Part shown: in pieces, positions 1-7,485 of the stretch
Position numbering within the stretch: the stretch's first letter is position 1
Layout: each line of letters begins with the position of its first letter
Source: a virus
Lineage: Duplodnaviria > Heunggongvirae > Uroviricota > Caudoviricetes
IMG/VR virus record: IMGVR_UViG_2534682003_000007
Coordinates: 1-7,485 of that record
Strand: one strand, 5' to 3'
DNA: 7,485 nucleotides
Translations under genes and position numbers: made by a program
The notes under the pieces: generated by a model
Database searches by the model: none
What the model was told of the DNA's origin: nothing
The model's input: the letters and a program-made list of their open reading frames with translations, nothing else

Positions 1-318
1 ACGACCAATAGCGGCTTTACCGGGCCATTGCTTACTGTTCATGTATTCGTTGGCCTGGTTAATTAGTAACTGTCTTTCTGATTCAGTAATTTCAATAAGC
101 TCTTCATGCGTGGGTGGAGGAATATCTGCCCACGCAGGCAGCCCATCATCTCCGGCAATACGGATTTTTCCTTGTGGCGGTTCAGCCATAAACTCACTGA
201 TAATATTCTGATTTACTTCCTTAGCGTCTGATAAATCCCATCCCTCTGATTTATATTTATCAATCATATCCACAGGAAAAAAAGCATTATACCTTGCGCT
301 ATAAACATATTCGTTCAT
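1..318 (-). CDS. Tail fibre assembly protein (Tfa/U-like), 3'-partial: ATG at 318..316, reading frame open to the window edge
   Basis: My own translation of the reverse complement gives MNEYVYSARYNAFFPVDMIDKYKSEGWDLSDAKEVNQNIISEFMAEPPQGKIRIAGDDGLPAWADIPPPTHEELIEITESERQLLINQANEYMNSKQWPGKAAIGR... with no stop before position 1. It begins 20 nt downstream of the stop of the tail-fibre cassette (339-341) on the same strand, with a GGTGA Shine-Dalgarno about 6 nt upstream of the ATG. Size, position and composition fit the small Tfa chaperones that follow tail-fibre genes. The family assignment is from memory, not from a search. Confidence 0.55.
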   Translation of the reverse strand, partial: MNEYVYSARYNAFFPVDMIDKYKSEGWDLSDAKEVNQNIISEFMAEPPQGKIRIAGDDGLPAWADIPPPTHEELIEITESERQLLINQANEYMNSKQWPGKAAIGR

Positions 319-338
319 ATAAATCACCCTGAATAAAA

Positions 339-707
339 TTACTCACCAACAGCCCACCAACTGTAATTCATCGATACCGTGTCGCTGGTTGATGACGTTC
401 TGTAAGCAGAATTAAAACCGGTTAACGTTGGGCCTTCTGCCGTCATCACGAACCCTCGCCCAGCGCCTAAAGGCGCACCGCCATCACCAGAATGAGTAAG
501 CATGGCGCAGTCCGCTTTTTTGGGGAAAGGGATGCTGAATGTAATTCTCATTGTTTGCGTCGATAATGTCGGCGTAACCGCACCACGACCATATTGCAGG
601 ATTTTCCCGTTGGGTAATTTCATCCATCCATCACCACTGGCAAAAGAGGCCATGTCCGGTATCTGATTTTCCCCTGTCCCAACATTTCGTTTTGCCGCTT
701 CTCCCAA
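339..707 (-). CDS. Tail fibre C-terminal variable cassette (Sv/Hv-like); probably the silent alternate copy of an invertible segment in this orientation
   Basis: 122-aa ORF rich in Gly/Ser/Thr and ending ...NYSWWAVGE, followed immediately by a Tfa-like gene, which is the usual tail-fibre plus assembly-chaperone pairing. The only start is a TTG at 705-707 with no convincing RBS. On the minus strand an in-frame TAA (719-717) lies four codons upstream, inside the putative crossover site. So in this orientation the cassette is not fused to a tail-fibre N-terminal constant region. Confidence 0.5.
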   Translation of the reverse strand: MGEAAKRNVGTGENQIPDMASFASGDGWMKLPNGKILQYGRGAVTPTLSTQTMRITFSIPFPKKADCAMLTHSGDGGAPLGAGRGFVMTAEGPTLTGFNSAYRTSSTSDTVSMNYSWWAVGE

Positions 708-724
708 ACCAACCTTTTAGAAAA
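699..724. promoter_or_regulatory. Putative 26-bp hix/gix/cix-family crossover site for a serine DNA invertase
   Basis: The sequence TTCTCCCAAACC-AA-CCTTTTAGAAAA has a 12-bp left half-site matching hixL (recalled as TTCTTGAAAACC-AA-GGTTTTTGATAA) at 9 of 12 positions, an AA central dinucleotide, and a more degenerate right half-site (8 of 12). It lies 55 bp upstream of the invertase start and exactly at the 5' boundary of the tail-fibre cassette, as gix lies at the Sc/Sv junction in Mu. Confidence 0.5.
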
Positions 725-778
725 TGCAGATATTCCGTTCAGCTGGCATGATCCCGACTTTTTACCGGGTTATTTCTC

Positions 779-1021
779 ATGTTTATCGGTTATGTACGTG
801 TATCAACAAATGACCAGAACACCGCATTACAGCGAAATGAACTGGAGTGCGCAGGATGTGAGCTGATTTTCGAAGATAAAATCAGCGGCAAAACATCAGA
901 CTGGCCGGGGCTAAAGAGGTCACTCAGAACCTTGTCAGAGGGCGATACGCTTGTGGTCTGGAAACTGGATCGCCTCGGGTATCTCAACGCTATACAAAAA
1001 ATTTCCCGCATCCGTTGCTGA
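779..1021 (+). pseudogene. Truncated Hin/Gin/Cin/Pin-family serine DNA invertase: 80 codons, only about the first 67 residues conserved
   Basis: The translation MFIGYVRVSTNDQNTALQRNELECAGCELIFEDKISGKTSDWPGLKRSLRTLSEGDTLVVWKLDRLG matches the N-terminus of Gin/Hin-type invertases nearly residue for residue, including the catalytic-serine motif YVRVSTNDQ and the GDTLVVWKLDRLGR block. After KLDRLG it diverges (YLNAIQKISRIRC) and stops at 1019-1021. I translated the two other frames downstream and neither resumes invertase-like sequence, so the 3' two-thirds, including the rest of the catalytic domain and the HTH DNA-binding domain, is deleted rather than frameshifted. Confidence 0.8.
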
Positions 1022-1056
1022 TGTCTCAATGTGTCAGACATCGCCCAACACTGACA
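1021..1056. promoter_or_regulatory. Overlapping dyad symmetries upstream of FI; candidate late-promoter activator site (Ogr/Delta-type)
   Basis: ATGTCT (1021-1026) pairs with AGACAT (1036-1041), and TGTCAG (1032-1037) pairs with CTGACA (1051-1056). This gives TGT...ACA elements about 65-100 bp upstream of the FI ATG. P2-family late promoters are known to carry a TGT-N12-ACA-type dyad near -55; the spacing here is N13 rather than N12. No strong sigma70 -35 is present, as expected for an activator-dependent promoter. Confidence 0.3.
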
Positions 1057-1119
1057 AATAGCCCCTCAACAGACCAGCCAGGACAATAACACTTGCCCAC
1101 TAACCACGGAGTTAACCGG

Positions 1120-2895: not shown

Positions 2896-3231
2896 ATGGC
2901 AAAAGCACCACGTAAAACCGCTGAATTTGTTGATATGGCTGGCAATGAAATTGACACCGTAAACCCGAACGTCGTGACCCTCGACAAGCCGATTAAGCGC
3001 GCCGGTCAGACGATTGATAAAGTCACACTGATTGAGCCGAACGCCGGTACCCTGCGCGGTGTCAGTCTGGCAGCGGTGGCGCAGTCCGAAGTCGATGCGC
3101 TGATTAAGGTATTGCCACGCATGACCTACCCCGCGCTTACGGCGCAGGAGCTTACCGCAATGAACCTGCCCGATATGCTGTCGTTGGCCGCTAAGGTGAT
3201 TGGTTTTTTGTCACCGGCTTCGGCGGAGTAG
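2896..3231 (+). CDS. E: Tail assembly chaperone E (P2 gpE homologue), 111 aa in-frame product
   Basis: A small ORF immediately upstream of the tape measure gene, which is the conserved position of the tail assembly chaperone. Its 3' end contains the slippery heptamer. An alternative internal ATG at 2935 exists but has a poorer RBS. Confidence 0.8.
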   Translation: MAKAPRKTAEFVDMAGNEIDTVNPNVVTLDKPIKRAGQTIDKVTLIEPNAGTLRGVSLAAVAQSEVDALIKVLPRMTYPALTAQELTAMNLPDMLSLAAKVIGFLSPASAE

Positions 3232-3383
3232 ATTTCCCGCCCGACCTGTCGACCGATGACCTGATGGCGGATATCGCGGTGATATTCCACTGGCCGCTAT
3301 CAGATCTCTATTCCCTGAGTCTGACCGAGCTCATCACATGGCGCGAAAAGGCGCTGCAGCGTAGCGGACACCACAATGAGTAA
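2896..3383 (+). CDS. E+E': E+E' tail assembly chaperone made by programmed -1 ribosomal frameshift at 3204-3210; about 162 aa
   Basis: After a -1 slip on T_TTT_TTG, the new frame stays open for 57 codons (VTGFGGVDFPPDLSTDDLMADIAVIFHWPLSDLYSLSLTELITWREKALQRSGHHNE) and stops at TAA 3381-3383, overlapping the T start codon (ATGAGTAA). This is the conserved G/GT-type and P2 E/E+E' arrangement of Caudovirales tail chaperones. Confidence 0.7.
3204..3210 (+). promoter_or_regulatory. Slippery heptamer T_TTT_TTG for the -1 programmed frameshift (E to E+E')
   Basis: In the E frame the codons are GGT TTT TTG (3202-3210), so the X_XXY_YYZ heptamer is T_TTT_TTG, 21 nt before the E stop. The -1 frame is open from here to 3383. 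Confidence 0.7.
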
Positions 3384-5820
3384 TAACCTGAGACTTGAGG
3401 TTTTGCTGAAAGCGGTCGACCAGGCGACCCGACCGCTTAAATCCATCCAGACCGCGAGTAAAACCCTGTCGGGCGATATTCGCGACACACAAAAAGGGCT
3501 GCGTGACCTGAACGGGCAGGCCGCGAAAATCGACGGCTTTCGCAAAACCAGCGCTCAACTGGCCGTAACCGGCCAGTCGCTGGAGAAGGCAAAGCGCGAG
3601 GCTGAAGCGCTTGCCACGCAATTCAAAAATACTGAGCGCCCGACGCGAGCGCAGGCACAGGTGCTCGAATCCGCAAAACGTGCCGCCGAGGGGCTGCAGG
3701 TTAAATACAACAGCCTCACCGAGTCGGTTAAACGCCAGCAACGCGAGCTGGGTGCCGCCGGTATCAATACCCGCAATCTGGCAAACGATGAGCGGGGGCT
3801 TAAAACACGTATCAGCGAGACGACGGCGCAGCTCAACCGGCAGCGTGAAGCATTGGCGAAGGTCAGCGCACAGCAGGCGCACCTAAACCGAGTGAAAGAG
3901 CGATATAAATCGGGTAAGGAGCTTGCCGGTAACATGGCCGCTGCAGGTGCTGCCGGGGTCGGTATTGCGACAGCGGGAACGATGGCCGGGGTTAAATTGC
4001 TGATGCCCGGTTATGACTTTGCGCAAAAAAACTCCGAGCTGCAGGCTGTGCTCGGGGTCGATAAGCAGTCGCCAGAAATGCAGGCGTTACGCAAACAGGC
4101 GCGCCAGCTCGGTGACAATACAGCCGCTTCTGCTGATGATGCAGCCAGTGCGCAGATTATCATTGCAAAAGGTGGTGGTGATGCGGCGGCTATAGCGGCC
4201 ATGACACCTGTGACTCTCAACCTGTCGCTTGCAAACAAAAAAACAATGGAGGAAAACGCGCAACTGTTGATGGGGACAAAAGCCGCCTTTCAACTTTCTA
4301 ATGACGCGGCTGCGCATATCGGTGATGTTCTTTCAACCACGATGAACAAAACCACCGCTGATTTTCAGGGACTAAGTGACTCATTAAGTTACCTTGCCCC
4401 TGTTGCGAAAAATGCTGGGGTGAGTCTTGAACAGGCGGCGGCGATTACCGGCACACTTCATGATAATAACATCAGGGGGTCAATGGCTGGGACTGGCGGC
4501 GCTGCTGTTATAACGAGACTACAGGCACCCACAGGCAAAGCATACGATGCTCTCAAAGAGCTGGGAGTTAAAACCTCAGACAGCAAAGGCAATACGCGCC
4601 CGCTATTTACCATCCTGAAAGAAATGCAGGCCAGTTTTAAGCGCAACAATCTTGGTACCTCACAAAAGGCCGAGTACGTGAAAACGATATTCGGCGAGGA
4701 GGCTATGAAGTCTGCAAGTGTCCTTATGGCGGCAGCGGCAAGCGGAAAACTCGATAAGCTAACTGCCACGATAAAGGATTCAGACGGTAAAACAGAGGAG
4801 CTGGTCAAGGTTATGCAGGATAACCTCGGCGGCGACTTCAAGGAGTTCCAGTCAGCATATGAGGCGGTCGGCACTGACCTCTATGACCAGCAAGATAGCT
4901 CATTGCGTCAGCTAACTCAGACAGCAACACGGTATGTGCTAAAGCTTGATGACTGGATCAAAGACAACAAGGAGTTAGCGGAAACTATCGGCATCATCGC
5001 CGGTGGTGCGCTGGCGCTGATTGGTATCATCGGCGGCATTGGTCTCGTTGCGTGGCCGGTTGTCATGGGGATTAATGCAATTATCGCCGCTGCTGGCGTG
5101 CTGGGTACGGTCTTTACTGTCGTCGGTAGTGCCATTGCGACAGCGCTCGGTGCGATTACCTGGCCGATAGTGGCCGTCGGTGCGGCGATTGTGGCGGGGG
5201 CGCTACTCATCCGTAAATATTGGGAGCCCATCAGCGCATTTTTCTCGGGAGTGATTGAAGGCATCATGAGTGCCTTTGCCCCAGTCGGGGAAATGTTAGC
5301 TCCACTGGCTCCCATTTTTGATGGTCTCGGCGAGAAACTGCGCGGCGTCTGGCAGTGGTTTAAAGACCTGATAGCACCGGTTAAGGCCACGCAGGAAACG
5401 CTTGATAGCTGCAAAAATGTCGGCGTCATATTTGGTCAGGCACTGGCCTCTGCCTTGATGGCTCCGCTCAATGTTTTTAACAAGCTGCGCAGCGGTGTCG
5501 ACTGGCTTCTCGAAAAGCTCGGCATCATCAACAAAGAGTCGGACAGCCTCGACCAGACCGCCGCCAAAACCAATGCCGCCACACAGGGTAATTCCTACAT
5601 CCCGGCAACCAGCACATATGGCGGCTATCAGGCTTATCAGCCAGTTACCGCACCGGCGGGGCGCTCTTACATTGACCAGAGCAAAAGCGAATACAACATC
5701 AATCTGCCGGGAGGTGTTGCGCCGGGGCATCAGCTTGACAGACAACTACGCGACACGCTCGAACAGATTGAGCGCGATAAACGCGCCCGCCAGCGTGCCA
5801 ACATGACCCACGACTATTGA
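3376..5820 (+). CDS. T: Tail tape measure protein (P2 gpT homologue), 814 aa
   Basis: Long ORF directly after the chaperone. The N-terminal third is coiled-coil-like and rich in Ala, Gln, Lys and Glu. A long Gly/Ala/Ile/Val-rich hydrophobic block is encoded around 4981-5223. The length is close to the roughly 815 aa of P2 T, and the start overlaps the E' stop. Confidence 0.9.
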   Translation: MSNNLRLEVLLKAVDQATRPLKSIQTASKTLSGDIRDTQKGLRDLNGQAAKIDGFRKTSAQLAVTGQSLEKAKREAEALATQFKNTERPTRAQAQVLESAKRAAEGLQVKYNSLTESVKRQQRELGAAGINTRNLANDERGLKTRISETTAQLNRQREALAKVSAQQAHLNRVKERYKSGKELAGNMAAAGAAGVGIATAGTMAGVKLLMPGYDFAQKNSELQAVLGVDKQSPEMQALRKQARQLGDNTAASADDAASAQIIIAKGGGDAAAIAAMTPVTLNLSLANKKTMEENAQLLMGTKAAFQLSNDAAAHIGDVLSTTMNKTTADFQGLSDSLSYLAPVAKNAGVSLEQAAAITGTLHDNNIRGSMAGTGGAAVITRLQAPTGKAYDALKELGVKTSDSKGNTRPLFTILKEMQASFKRNNLGTSQKAEYVKTIFGEEAMKSASVLMAAAASGKLDKLTATIKDSDGKTEELVKVMQDNLGGDFKEFQSAYEAVGTDLYDQQDSSLRQLTQTATRYVLKLDDWIKDNKELAETIGIIAGGALALIGIIGGIGLVAWPVVMGINAIIAAAGVLGTVFTVVGSAIATALGAITWPIVAVGAAIVAGALLIRKYWEPISAFFSGVIEGIMSAFAPVGEMLAPLAPIFDGLGEKLRGVWQWFKDLIAPVKATQETLDSCKNVGVIFGQALASALMAPLNVFNKLRSGVDWLLEKLGIINKESDSLDQTAAKTNAATQGNSYIPATSTYGGYQAYQPVTAPAGRSYIDQSKSEYNINLPGGVAPGHQLDRQLRDTLEQIERDKRARQRANMTHDY

Positions 5821-5833
5821 GGGGGATTAAACG

Positions 5834-6319
5834 ATGATGCTTGCTCTCGGAATGTTTGTGTTTGAACTTCGCACCCTGCCTTACCAGTCGATGCAGCATT
5901 CGAAAGATTATCGCTGGGTGTCCAATGACCGGGTGGGTAAACCACCTGCCTATCAGTTTCTTGGCGAGGGGGAAACCTCTATACAGCTTGCTGGTACGCT
6001 ATACCCCGCTATCACTGGCGGTTGGATCTCACTAAAGGCTGTAGAGGTGATGGCCAATGAAGGCAGAGCGTGGCCGTTGATAGAGGGAACCGGAAATATC
6101 CTCGGGATGTATATCGTCGATAAAGTATCGACTACACGCACCGAGTTTTTCAGTGATGGTGCGGCCAGAAAGATTGATTTCACGCTTTCGCTAAAACGGG
6201 TTGATGAATCGCTGACAGAGATGTTTGGTGACCTGAATAAACAGGCCAGTGAGCTTCTCGGCTCTGCCGGTAATTTGACAGATAAACTGCAGGGTATGCC
6301 CGGAGGTTTCACTGCATGA
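5834..6319 (+). CDS. U: Tail protein U (P2 gpU homologue), 161 aa
   Basis: GAGGGGG RBS at 5819-5825. The translation MMLALGMFVFELRTLPYQSMQHSKDYRW...GEGETSIQLAGTLYPAITGG...EGRAWPLIEGTGNILGMYIVDKVSTTRTEFFSDGAARKIDFTLSLKRV matches the P2 U pattern. Its stop overlaps the D start (ATGA at 6316-6319). Confidence 0.9.
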   Translation: MMLALGMFVFELRTLPYQSMQHSKDYRWVSNDRVGKPPAYQFLGEGETSIQLAGTLYPAITGGWISLKAVEVMANEGRAWPLIEGTGNILGMYIVDKVSTTRTEFFSDGAARKIDFTLSLKRVDESLTEMFGDLNKQASELLGSAGNLTDKLQGMPGGFTA

Positions 6320-7485
6320 TAACGGGGATGGCAATTGACGCCGGTGCCAGCCTTGCACCGGCATTTATGTTGACGCTGAACAGCCAGGACATTACCAGCA
6401 ATTTTAGTGACCGATTGATTTCTCTCACCATGACCGATAACCGGGGTTTTGAGGCTGACCAGCTCGATATTGAGCTTGATGATACCGACGGGAAAGTTGA
6501 GTTACCCCTGCGCGGGGCAGTGCTGACGCTGTGGCTTGGCTGGCAGGGCTCGGCGTTGCTGAATAAGGGGGATTTTACGGTCGATGAGATTGAGCACCGG
6601 GGAGCGCCTGACACCCTGACCATCCGGGCGCGCAGCGCGGACTTTCGCGGCACGCTAAATTCCAGGCGTGAAGAGTCATGGCATGACACCACCATCGGAG
6701 AACTGGTCAGCACCATCGCAAAACGCAATAAACTGACGGCCAGTGTCGCTGATTCACTGAAAAAAATCCCGGTACCGCATATCGACCAGTCGCAGGAGTC
6801 CGACGCGGTGTTTCTGACCCGGCTAGCTGACCGAAACGGAGCTGCGGTGTCAGTGAAAGCGGGGAAATTGCTGTTTCTGAAAGCCGGTAGTGCGATGACG
6901 GCCAGCGGCAGACCCATCCCGCAAATGACGCTGACCCGTAGCAATGGTGACCGTCATCAATTTGCTATTGCCGACCGTGGGGCTTATACCGGCGTAACGG
7001 CAAAATGGTTGCACACCAAAGACCCGAAGCCGCAAAAGCAAAAAGTGACGCTGAAACGCCAGCCAAAAGAGAAACACCTACGCGCACTGGAGCACCCGAA
7101 AGCAAAGCCTGTCAGCAAAAAGACAAAGGCCAAAAAAGAGCAGGAGGCTCGCGAGGGTGAGTATATGGCCGGTGAAGCCGATAACGTGCTGGCGCTGACA
7201 ACGGTCTACGCATCAAAGGCGCAGGCGATGCGTGCCGCTCAGGCTAAGTGGGATAAACTGCAGCGAGGCGTTGCGGAGTTTTCAATCACACTGGCGCTAG
7301 GGCGAGCGGATTTATTTCCTGAGACGCCTGTACGTGTGTCGGGCTTTAAGCGCGTAATAGACGAACAGGTATGGTTAATCAGTAAAGTAACTCACATTCT
7401 GAATAATAGTGGCTTCACGACGGGGTTAGAGCTTGAGGTTAAGCTATCTGATATAGAGTACAGCTCAGAGGAAAGCGAAATATAA
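6316..7485 (+). CDS. D: Tail protein D (P2 gpD homologue; tail hub / late-control protein), 389 aa
   Basis: Complete ORF with a TAA stop at 7483-7485, translationally coupled to U. Its size (389 aa against about 387 for P2 D) and its position as the last gene of the FI-FII-E-T-U-D operon fit the assignment. Confidence 0.88.
   Translation: MITGMAIDAGASLAPAFMLTLNSQDITSNFSDRLISLTMTDNRGFEADQLDIELDDTDGKVELPLRGAVLTLWLGWQGSALLNKGDFTVDEIEHRGAPDTLTIRARSADFRGTLNSRREESWHDTTIGELVSTIAKRNKLTASVADSLKKIPVPHIDQSQESDAVFLTRLADRNGAAVSVKAGKLLFLKAGSAMTASGRPIPQMTLTRSNGDRHQFAIADRGAYTGVTAKWLHTKDPKPQKQKVTLKRQPKEKHLRALEHPKAKPVSKKTKAKKEQEAREGEYMAGEADNVLALTTVYASKAQAMRAAQAKWDKLQRGVAEFSITLALGRADLFPETPVRVSGFKRVIDEQVWLISKVTHILNNSGFTTGLELEVKLSDIEYSSEESEI

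Follow-up and report, generated by a model that had tools for sequence, protein, structure and literature searches.

Positions 1-724 of the window, by which we mean the whole stretch of 7,485 nucleotides that was analysed, are very probably the OFF half of an invertible tail-fibre segment of the Pin/Gin/Cin type, carried by an E. coli prophage of the 186/P2 type (Peduoviridae). The switch is a non-autonomous member of the Din-type family, flipping without an enzyme of its own. Its significance as an invertible switch rests on identical DNA present in both orientations and not on chance statistics for short motifs. The window contains the tail module of a P2/186-type prophage, and its features are given below together with those to the left of the window, which are numbered on the E. 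coli contig L008 (L008 position minus 7,222 gives the window position).

1-318, minus strand: tfa', encoding the Tfa chaperone of the silent tip, N-terminal 106 of 147 codons (Caudo_TAP, PHROG 188)
339-707, minus strand: silent tail-fibre C-terminal (receptor-binding) cassette, 122-aa ORF with a TTG start (Gp53-like_C)
699-724, no strand: right-hand 26-bp crossover site (pix/gix-like; Pin/Gin-type), assigned by its partner in gpH and by divergence at the core
717-719, minus strand: TAA stop in frame with the silent tip, within the outer half of the crossover site
779-1021, plus strand: truncated Din-family serine invertase ORF, 80 aa (Pfam Resolvase, PHROG DNA invertase)
797-871, no strand: candidate recombinational enhancer with two putative Fis sites (synonymous-site conservation)
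978-1119, plus strand: 3' remnant of the invertase gene (STLYKKFPAS...), then the conserved region upstream of FI (alignment)
1120-2298: FI, sheath
2314-2832: FII, tube
2896-3231: gpE
3376-5820: T, tape measure
5834-6319: U
6316-7485: D
L008 5423-6532, plus strand: gpH, 369 aa
L008 6018-6043, inside gpH: left partner site, TTCTTAAAAACC TT CGTTTGGGAGCG, inverted relative to the window site
L008, plus strand: tfa, 197 aa
L008 7097-7540, minus strand: tfa', 147 aa
L008, minus strand: tip', 122 aa

The original prediction had read a tail-fibre tip at 339-707 and a Tfa-like gene at 1-318 from the minus strand, opposite to FI-D, and both are present there. The 122-aa tip matches the Pfam family Gp53-like_C (PF21882) over profile positions 1-83 of 84 (E 7.3e-13, 49.3 bits against a cut-off of 24.9), and tail-fibre PHROGs also match the product. 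The 1-318 frame runs without stops across 106 aa, and its product matches Caudo_TAP (PF02413) above the gathering threshold on what is a partial protein (E 1.2e-13, 51.8 bits, cut-off 22.1), as well as PHROG 188, tail fibre assembly protein (E 7.9e-38). The gene extends past the left edge of the window, with its C-terminal 41 codons outside. A PDB sequence search with the tip returned a single weak match, the short tail fiber gp92 of 9zd7 (E 0.054), to which no weight is given.

The coding sequence of the cassette continues beyond the 339-707 ORF up to the crossover core at 711-712. Read further upstream, the tip frame is ...F, stop, KVGLGEAAK..., the stop being the TAA at 717-719. The tip thus has, as had been proposed, only a TTG start and an in-frame stop four codons upstream that lies inside the crossover site, and this TAA, contributed by the outer half-site, closes the silent-tip frame in the OFF orientation. 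No minus-strand sigma-70-like promoter placed to drive the silent cassette was found. An AAGG motif was seen 5 nt upstream of the TTG on direct reading of the sequence.

Elsewhere the same cassette forms the 3' end of a complete fibre gene, namely in pro483, ECE313, L010 and L020. The collection of assemblies has the identical 122-aa protein in 26 blocks, and the eight contexts of it that we examined include P2-like, Mu-like and P1-like elements and another myovirus; in L010 the tip is ON, carried on the fibre of an unrelated myovirus. The tip cassette is a promiscuous module. Other hosts of the same tip (L013, L015 and L017) may hold extra cassettes. A comparison with known fibre tips, which the original prediction had proposed, bore the likeness to tail-fibre C-termini out, through the Pfam and PHROG matches and the 3' end of the pro483 fibre gene. 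Similarity to Mu S/S' or P1 S was absent among the matches listed (40 of 55 phage-collection matches at E <= 1e-5). The resemblance to the Mu G segment is therefore one of architecture and not of tip sequence.

The left flank of the window was recovered from L008 (GCA_036872275.1) and L016 (GCA_029942945.1), two E. coli contigs that match the window at every one of its 7,485 bases (100% identity) and that were found through exact-protein look-ups with the 80-aa and 122-aa ORFs. The gene order in L008 is gpI, gpH, tfa, tfa', tip', truncated invertase and FI, and rplS adjoins the prophage. As a sibling copy shows, the prophage is a complete element of the 186 type, with genes for integrase, cI/cII, replication, head, lysis and tail. 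The record vB_EcoM-613R3 was considered as an isolated virion, which would have made the deleted lineage a live phage, and was rejected because host genes flank it on both sides; the record is a prophage region extracted in silico. When the region upstream of FI was searched by eye for the P2/186 late-promoter dyad TGT-N12-ACA, the only dyad seen was TGTCAG-N13-CTGACA, which is not taken for a promoter.

The right-hand crossover site consists of the inner half TTCTCCCAAACC, the core AA (711-712) and the outer half CCTTTTAGAAAA. Its exact 14-mer TTCTCCCAAACCAA is found a single time in the window, and allowing up to 3 mismatches gave no further copy, so that the partner site had to lie outside, and it was found within gpH. 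Each site of about 26 bp is built from two imperfect 12-bp half-sites that flank a 2-bp core, AA on the right and TT on the left, and at both sites the core dinucleotide supplies codon positions 2 and 3 of the respective frame. In the prophage of the window the two sites are alike over only 18 nt, at 83%. They bound an invertible segment of 1,903 bp that carries, in L008, two oppositely oriented cassettes of tip and chaperone. A core scan of L008 5001-8300 gave one left and one right site, with none of the additional crossover sites that are present in Min of p15B and in shufflons. Across seven prophages the point of sequence divergence is exactly the core; outside it, AA CCTTTTAGAAAATGCAGATATTCC... 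is constant across the prophages of the deletion lineage, and inside it divergence is immediate.

The original prediction had proposed that a leftward extension, once inverted, might fuse the silent tip in frame to an upstream fibre region. Inversion of L008 6031-7933 in silico produced exactly this, an uninterrupted 326-aa gpH in which gpH 1-203 is in frame with the silent tip. The joint reads LKNL/GLGEAAKRNVG within the sequence ...DVLKNL/GLGEAAKRNVGTGENQIPDM...WAVGE, and it agrees with that of the expressed pro483 fibre (...LAYL/GLGEAAKRDVGTGENQ...). After inversion tfa' starts 20 bp downstream of the 326-aa gpH, and the displaced tip gains the identical F-stop-KV.

Public E. coli assemblies contain this predicted 326-aa protein without a single residue changed (P0001; EEU9365953.1 and EEU9565699.1). 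The contig L020 (GCA_012007385.1) lines up with the in silico inverted L008 in one collinear stretch of 15,159 bp that has 1 mismatch, and its truncated invertase ORF is identical to that of the window. With an inverted partner site in gpH and a flipped prophage in public sequence, the view that the cassette is the unexpressed half of a Mu G-like invertible region stands. Both recombinant sites of L020 are as predicted, the left being TTCTTAAAAACC TT GGTTTGGGAGAA (outer-left, TT, inner-right) and the right CGCTCCCAAACG AA CCTTTTAGAAAA (inner-left, AA, outer-right). The parental sites differ in the letters that directly adjoin the core on both sides (..ACC TT C.. versus ..AGG TT G..), which places the L020 exchange within the 2 bp of the core itself.

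Further isomers were found in the public assemblies, and GCA_012008525.1 is among those with a flipped one. In addition to L008 and L016 versus L020 and L021, which are isomers of the prophage of the window, L001 and L004 (strain FDAARGOS_1280) carry a 1,542-bp segment that is 100% identical and inverted, and L005 (EC12) and L009 (EC15) do so for a segment of 1,869 bp. In both of these latter pairs the flanking DNA is also 100% identical, for 4.5 kb to the left and 6.4 kb to the right. ECE313 has the same dead invertase, and there the window-type tip is ON within an intact gpH of 326 aa. A scan of viral contigs did not return the predicted flipped junction, and a composite exact pattern of tip sequence, gap and deletion junction was absent from both genome contigs and viral contigs. 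Opposite orientations in different assemblies mean that flips occurred at some time after the deletion, and they say nothing about rate.

A functional serine invertase, with catalytic domain and C-terminal HTH, was not found next to the segment; this defect of the adjacent gene was no part of the original prediction. Invertase homology in the 80-aa ORF is limited to residues 1-67 (nt 779-977), and the remainder is out-of-frame read-through past a deletion. The matches to Pfam Resolvase (residues 3-67 only) and to the PHROG DNA invertase family are likewise restricted, and the frame of the 3' remnant is not that of the 5' part. When the gene was aligned pairwise, with cheap gap extension, to the intact invertase gene of pro483, one internal, out-of-frame deletion of 311 bp emerged, positions 199-510 (approximately codons 67-170), and with it the remainder of the catalytic domain is lost; a MAFFT placement of the 3' remnant was wrong and was discarded in favor of this single deletion. 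Homologues of the truncated gene are pseudogenes in RefSeq. Because of the deletion the switch is unable to flip itself. The suggestion that inversion could switch the tip on is thus upheld in that flipped isomers exist, but it has to be qualified in that the resident invertase is inactive.

Among 5,426 complete E. coli genomes, 35 carry the same deletion junction, and 314 blocks of the assembly collection have the 80-aa ORF in exact form. Deletion-carrying prophages differ by up to ~5% in their tail genes and have different tip cassettes. A deletion common to prophages this divergent is older than the flips, and since the deletion is old and shared while the flips are recent, flipping is presumably catalysed by an enzyme encoded elsewhere, with another prophage as its probable source.

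The proposed mechanism builds on architecture, in-frame fusion, both orientations, exchange at the 2-bp core and the deletion, all of which are directly observed. Two inverted 26-bp sites bound the segment, one within gpH and the other at 699-724 beside the invertase gene, with two convergent cassettes between them, each a fibre tip with its own Tfa chaperone. In the orientation of the window, gpH codons 1-203 and the other tip make a 369-aa fibre. The tip and tfa' of the window face away from the late operon and lack an upstream coding partner, and their frame is closed by the TAA. A serine invertase would cut the central dinucleotide of both sites and the segment would flip, joining gpH 1-203 to the tip of the window in a 326-aa fibre with tfa' directly downstream. 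By analogy with the rest of the family, the receptor specificity of the particle would be expected to change on the flip. The invertase acting on this non-autonomous switch would be a related one encoded elsewhere in the cell.

There is precedent for such borrowed activity. The e14 P segment is inverted by PinE and also by PinQ and PinR, which are encoded in other prophages; the P2-like prophage Fels-2 has Fin, which inverts the H segment of Salmonella; and both the H segment and Mu G are inverted by PinE (PMC12529663). In these cross-acting cases, PinQ/PinR on e14 and Fin on H, a switch is flipped from a different prophage, and the target also has its own invertase (PinE and Hin, respectively), whereas here the resident one is deleted and action in trans would be obligatory. 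Deep sequencing has directly revealed inversion in P2-like EPEC prophages (PMC4272514). With pinE deleted, the e14 segment stays locked when expression is at native levels (PMC12529663), so borrowed flipping may be slow, inefficient or conditional. Combined induction of pinQ and pinR has been described on T2 infection, and the e14 inversion products StfE2 and StfP2 affect the adsorption of other phages, with receptor masking reported for StfE2 (PMC12529663).

The deletion retains the 5' 199 bp of the invertase gene. The invertase genes of the Hin, Gin and Cin systems carry the Fis-bound enhancer at their 5' end. An alignment of only seven related sequences gave two modest maxima of synonymous conservation, one at 797-826 and one at 845-871 (centres ~47 bp apart), and these are suggestive of a candidate Fis enhancer in the retained part. 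A broader proposal, that the lineage is widespread, that its fibre switch is obligatorily driven by the invertases of co-resident prophages and that the host may use the fibre products, for example in receptor masking, is speculative and we consider it rather unlikely as a whole. If true, whether and when the switch flips would depend on the set of prophages sharing the cell and on the timing of induction of their invertases.

Several other explanations were weighed. The switch might have been locked when its invertase was deleted, leaving the tip and tfa' as a decaying, never-expressed remnant. The invertase is clearly dead, a pseudogene in RefSeq, and the locking of the e14 segment by pinE deletion at native expression (PMC12529663) fits such a history; however, three independent and otherwise identical deletion-bearing pairs, the prophage of the window included, are distinguished solely by the orientation of the segment, neither crossover site is damaged, and the 122-aa tip ORF is intact as well, with its identical protein in 26 blocks. 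We judge a locked remnant to be very unlikely, and the L020 comparison has already largely refuted it. The orientation differences themselves might be attributed to RecA-dependent homologous recombination between the inverted repeats in place of a site-specific event, and in some siblings the imperfect inverted repeats are indeed longer (67 nt at 82% in L001/L004). In the prophage of the window, though, only 18 nt at 83% are available to such a pathway, and the exchange in L020 falls within a 2-bp core that has mismatches to its left and right, a stretch much too short for any homology-dependent process and precisely the place where serine invertases make their staggered cut. Of the explanations considered, we give this one the least credence, and regard it as extremely improbable.

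It could also be asked whether the 122-aa ORF is an independently expressed small protein, begun at its own TTG or at an internal ATG and acting, for instance, as a receptor-masking or exclusion factor. RefSeq and gene callers label it as a stand-alone 'gp53-like domain-containing protein', the AAGG motif precedes the TTG, and StfE2 and StfP2 of e14 set a precedent for effects on the adsorption of other phages (PMC12529663). Against this, the frame is seamless through the crossover site and forms the C-terminus of full-length fibres in pro483, ECE313, L010 and L020, the upstream minus strand has no promoter-like site, and the product would be without the N-terminal region by which fibres are anchored to the baseplate. 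An independent role is, in our estimation, quite improbable, and a silent half of an invertible fibre gene remains the preferred reading.

The architecture and mechanism are already known, being of the Mu G, P1 C and e14 P type in an arrangement described for P2-like prophages, and all of the testable features that define the family are found here except a functional resident invertase. In Mu G/Gin (S/U versus S'/U') and P1 C/Cin, as in this prophage, the constant fibre N-terminus lies outside the segment and alternative C-termini with their chaperones lie inside, the sites are 26 bp with a 2-bp core, and a serine invertase gene stands beside one site; the invertase is functional in those systems and non-functional here. 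The closest likeness at the sites is to e14. Its P segment, which is bounded by the repeats TTGGTTTGGGAGAAGG and CCTTCTCCCAAACCAA (PMC12529663), measures 1,797 bp compared with 1,903 bp here and, like this locus, holds two convergent cassettes of fibre tip and tfa with the invertase gene immediately adjacent. The repeat CCTTCTCCCAAACCAA is nearly identical to GCTTCTCCCAAACCAA of the window, and the site of the window is essentially the e14 pix site. Many E. coli genomes match window positions 1-979 at ~92% identity in a region annotated 'gp53-like / tail fiber assembly protein / pinE'. The e14 element is a lambdoid remnant, a defective prophage of E. coli K-12 with an intact pinE, whereas here a complete 186/P2-type prophage has a 311-bp invertase deletion.

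Among P2-like loci, those of pro483, P2 of O157:H43 T22 and the EPEC E2348/69 prophages have the same order, I-H-tfa-tfa'-tip'-invertase-FI. The same cassette, at 97.6% nucleotide identity, is ON in pro483 as the 3' end of the full tail-fibre gene, and the cassette of the window is OFF in P2 of O157:H43 T22. These P2-like elements have full-length invertase genes (594 bp in pro483), unlike the lineage of the window.

What this locus adds to an otherwise textbook mechanism, without raising a new question, is the dead invertase together with evidence of continued flipping at base-pair level. It provides a natural, base-pair-resolved example of a phage host-range switch still flipping after the loss of its own recombinase, and it illustrates how Din-type switches and their enzymes form a pool shared by the prophages of one cell. 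Annotation and host-range prediction for temperate phages should consider both orientations of such segments. At present the functional switch is hidden by the 'gp53-like domain-containing protein' labels of RefSeq and by the annotation of ECE313, in which PGAP splits the intact gpH into a pseudogene and a 'gp53-like' ORF.

The fibre tip at the left end of the window, a 122-aa C-terminal cassette of the Gp53-like_C family that is silent (OFF) there for want of an upstream coding partner, recurs in prophages of several types.

L011, L012 and L014, each at ~7990-8370: silent tip cassette in Mu-like prophages, 98-100% nucleotide identity
L017, ~7990-8370: silent tip cassette in a P1-like prophage, 98-100% nucleotide identity
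L013 and L015, each at ~7990-8370: silent tip cassette in P2-like prophages, 98-100% nucleotide identity

In all six, divergence starts exactly at the crossover core, and this pattern across Mu-, P1- and P2-like elements points to the swapping of tip cassettes between unrelated phages via a common crossover site. The part of the tip nearest that site (window 570-717) also has a counterpart in the lambdoid phages phi80 (23737-23884) and mEp237 (22441-22588), a 148-bp fragment that is 93.9% identical. The phi80 copy, which is annotated as an internal pseudogene fragment, seems to be what is left of an earlier cassette.

The identical 122-aa tip occupies the ON position, joined in frame to a fibre N-terminus, in an unrelated myovirus (L010 7600-8369). 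Here the frame is open for >130 codons upstream, the joint reads ...NGLANL|GLGEAAKRNVG, and a 183-aa invertase is present and intact. The gene caller recorded the 122-aa ORF alone despite the open upstream frame. For the tail-fibre gene gpH of E. coli ECE313 (L018 3693-4673), RefSeq gives a C-terminally truncated pseudogene and a separate ‘gp53-like’ gene. Since the 326-aa ORF, the length of the fibre with this tip ON, is uninterrupted, the split is spurious, an annotation artefact that stems from the alternative fibre tip.

Additional ORFs separate the invertase from the tip at three of these loci (L013 7540-7857, L015 7535-7957 and L017 7524), and in L017 the sequence TTCCCCCAAACCAA forms one more crossover-like site. 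All three may therefore be multi-cassette inversion systems with at least three sites, like the one reported for an EPEC P2-like prophage.

The invertase gene adjoining the switch in the window is disrupted.

Window 779-1119: invertase gene with a 311-bp internal out-of-frame deletion, about codons 67-170

Among complete E. coli genomes, 35 share the deletion junction, and the index of the assembly collection lists the exact 80-aa truncated ORF in 314 blocks, so the prophage lineage carrying this dead invertase is widespread. In the contig with the flipped segment (L020 18737-18981), collinearity with L008, the E. coli contig identical to the window, ends downstream of ogr, and an integrase is encoded where L008 has rplS. 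One reading is that this prophage, which differs by 1 mismatch in 15 kb, has a different genomic setting here; the other is that its attachment site also holds another inserted element.

Two further features concern the tail genes.

L004 2059-2895 / L001 461-1297, opposite strand: pentapeptide-repeat (YjcF-like) gene between S and V
Window 3203-3211: GGTTTTTTG, close to the 3' end of gpE (2896-3231)
Window ~3264-3383: GpE-family ORF in a different frame, after gpE

The YjcF-like gene, present in one sibling prophage and missing from L008, looks like a moron. The GGTTTTTTG element is a candidate frameshift site, which we take to resemble the conserved -1 site that makes E+E' in P2-type tail operons.
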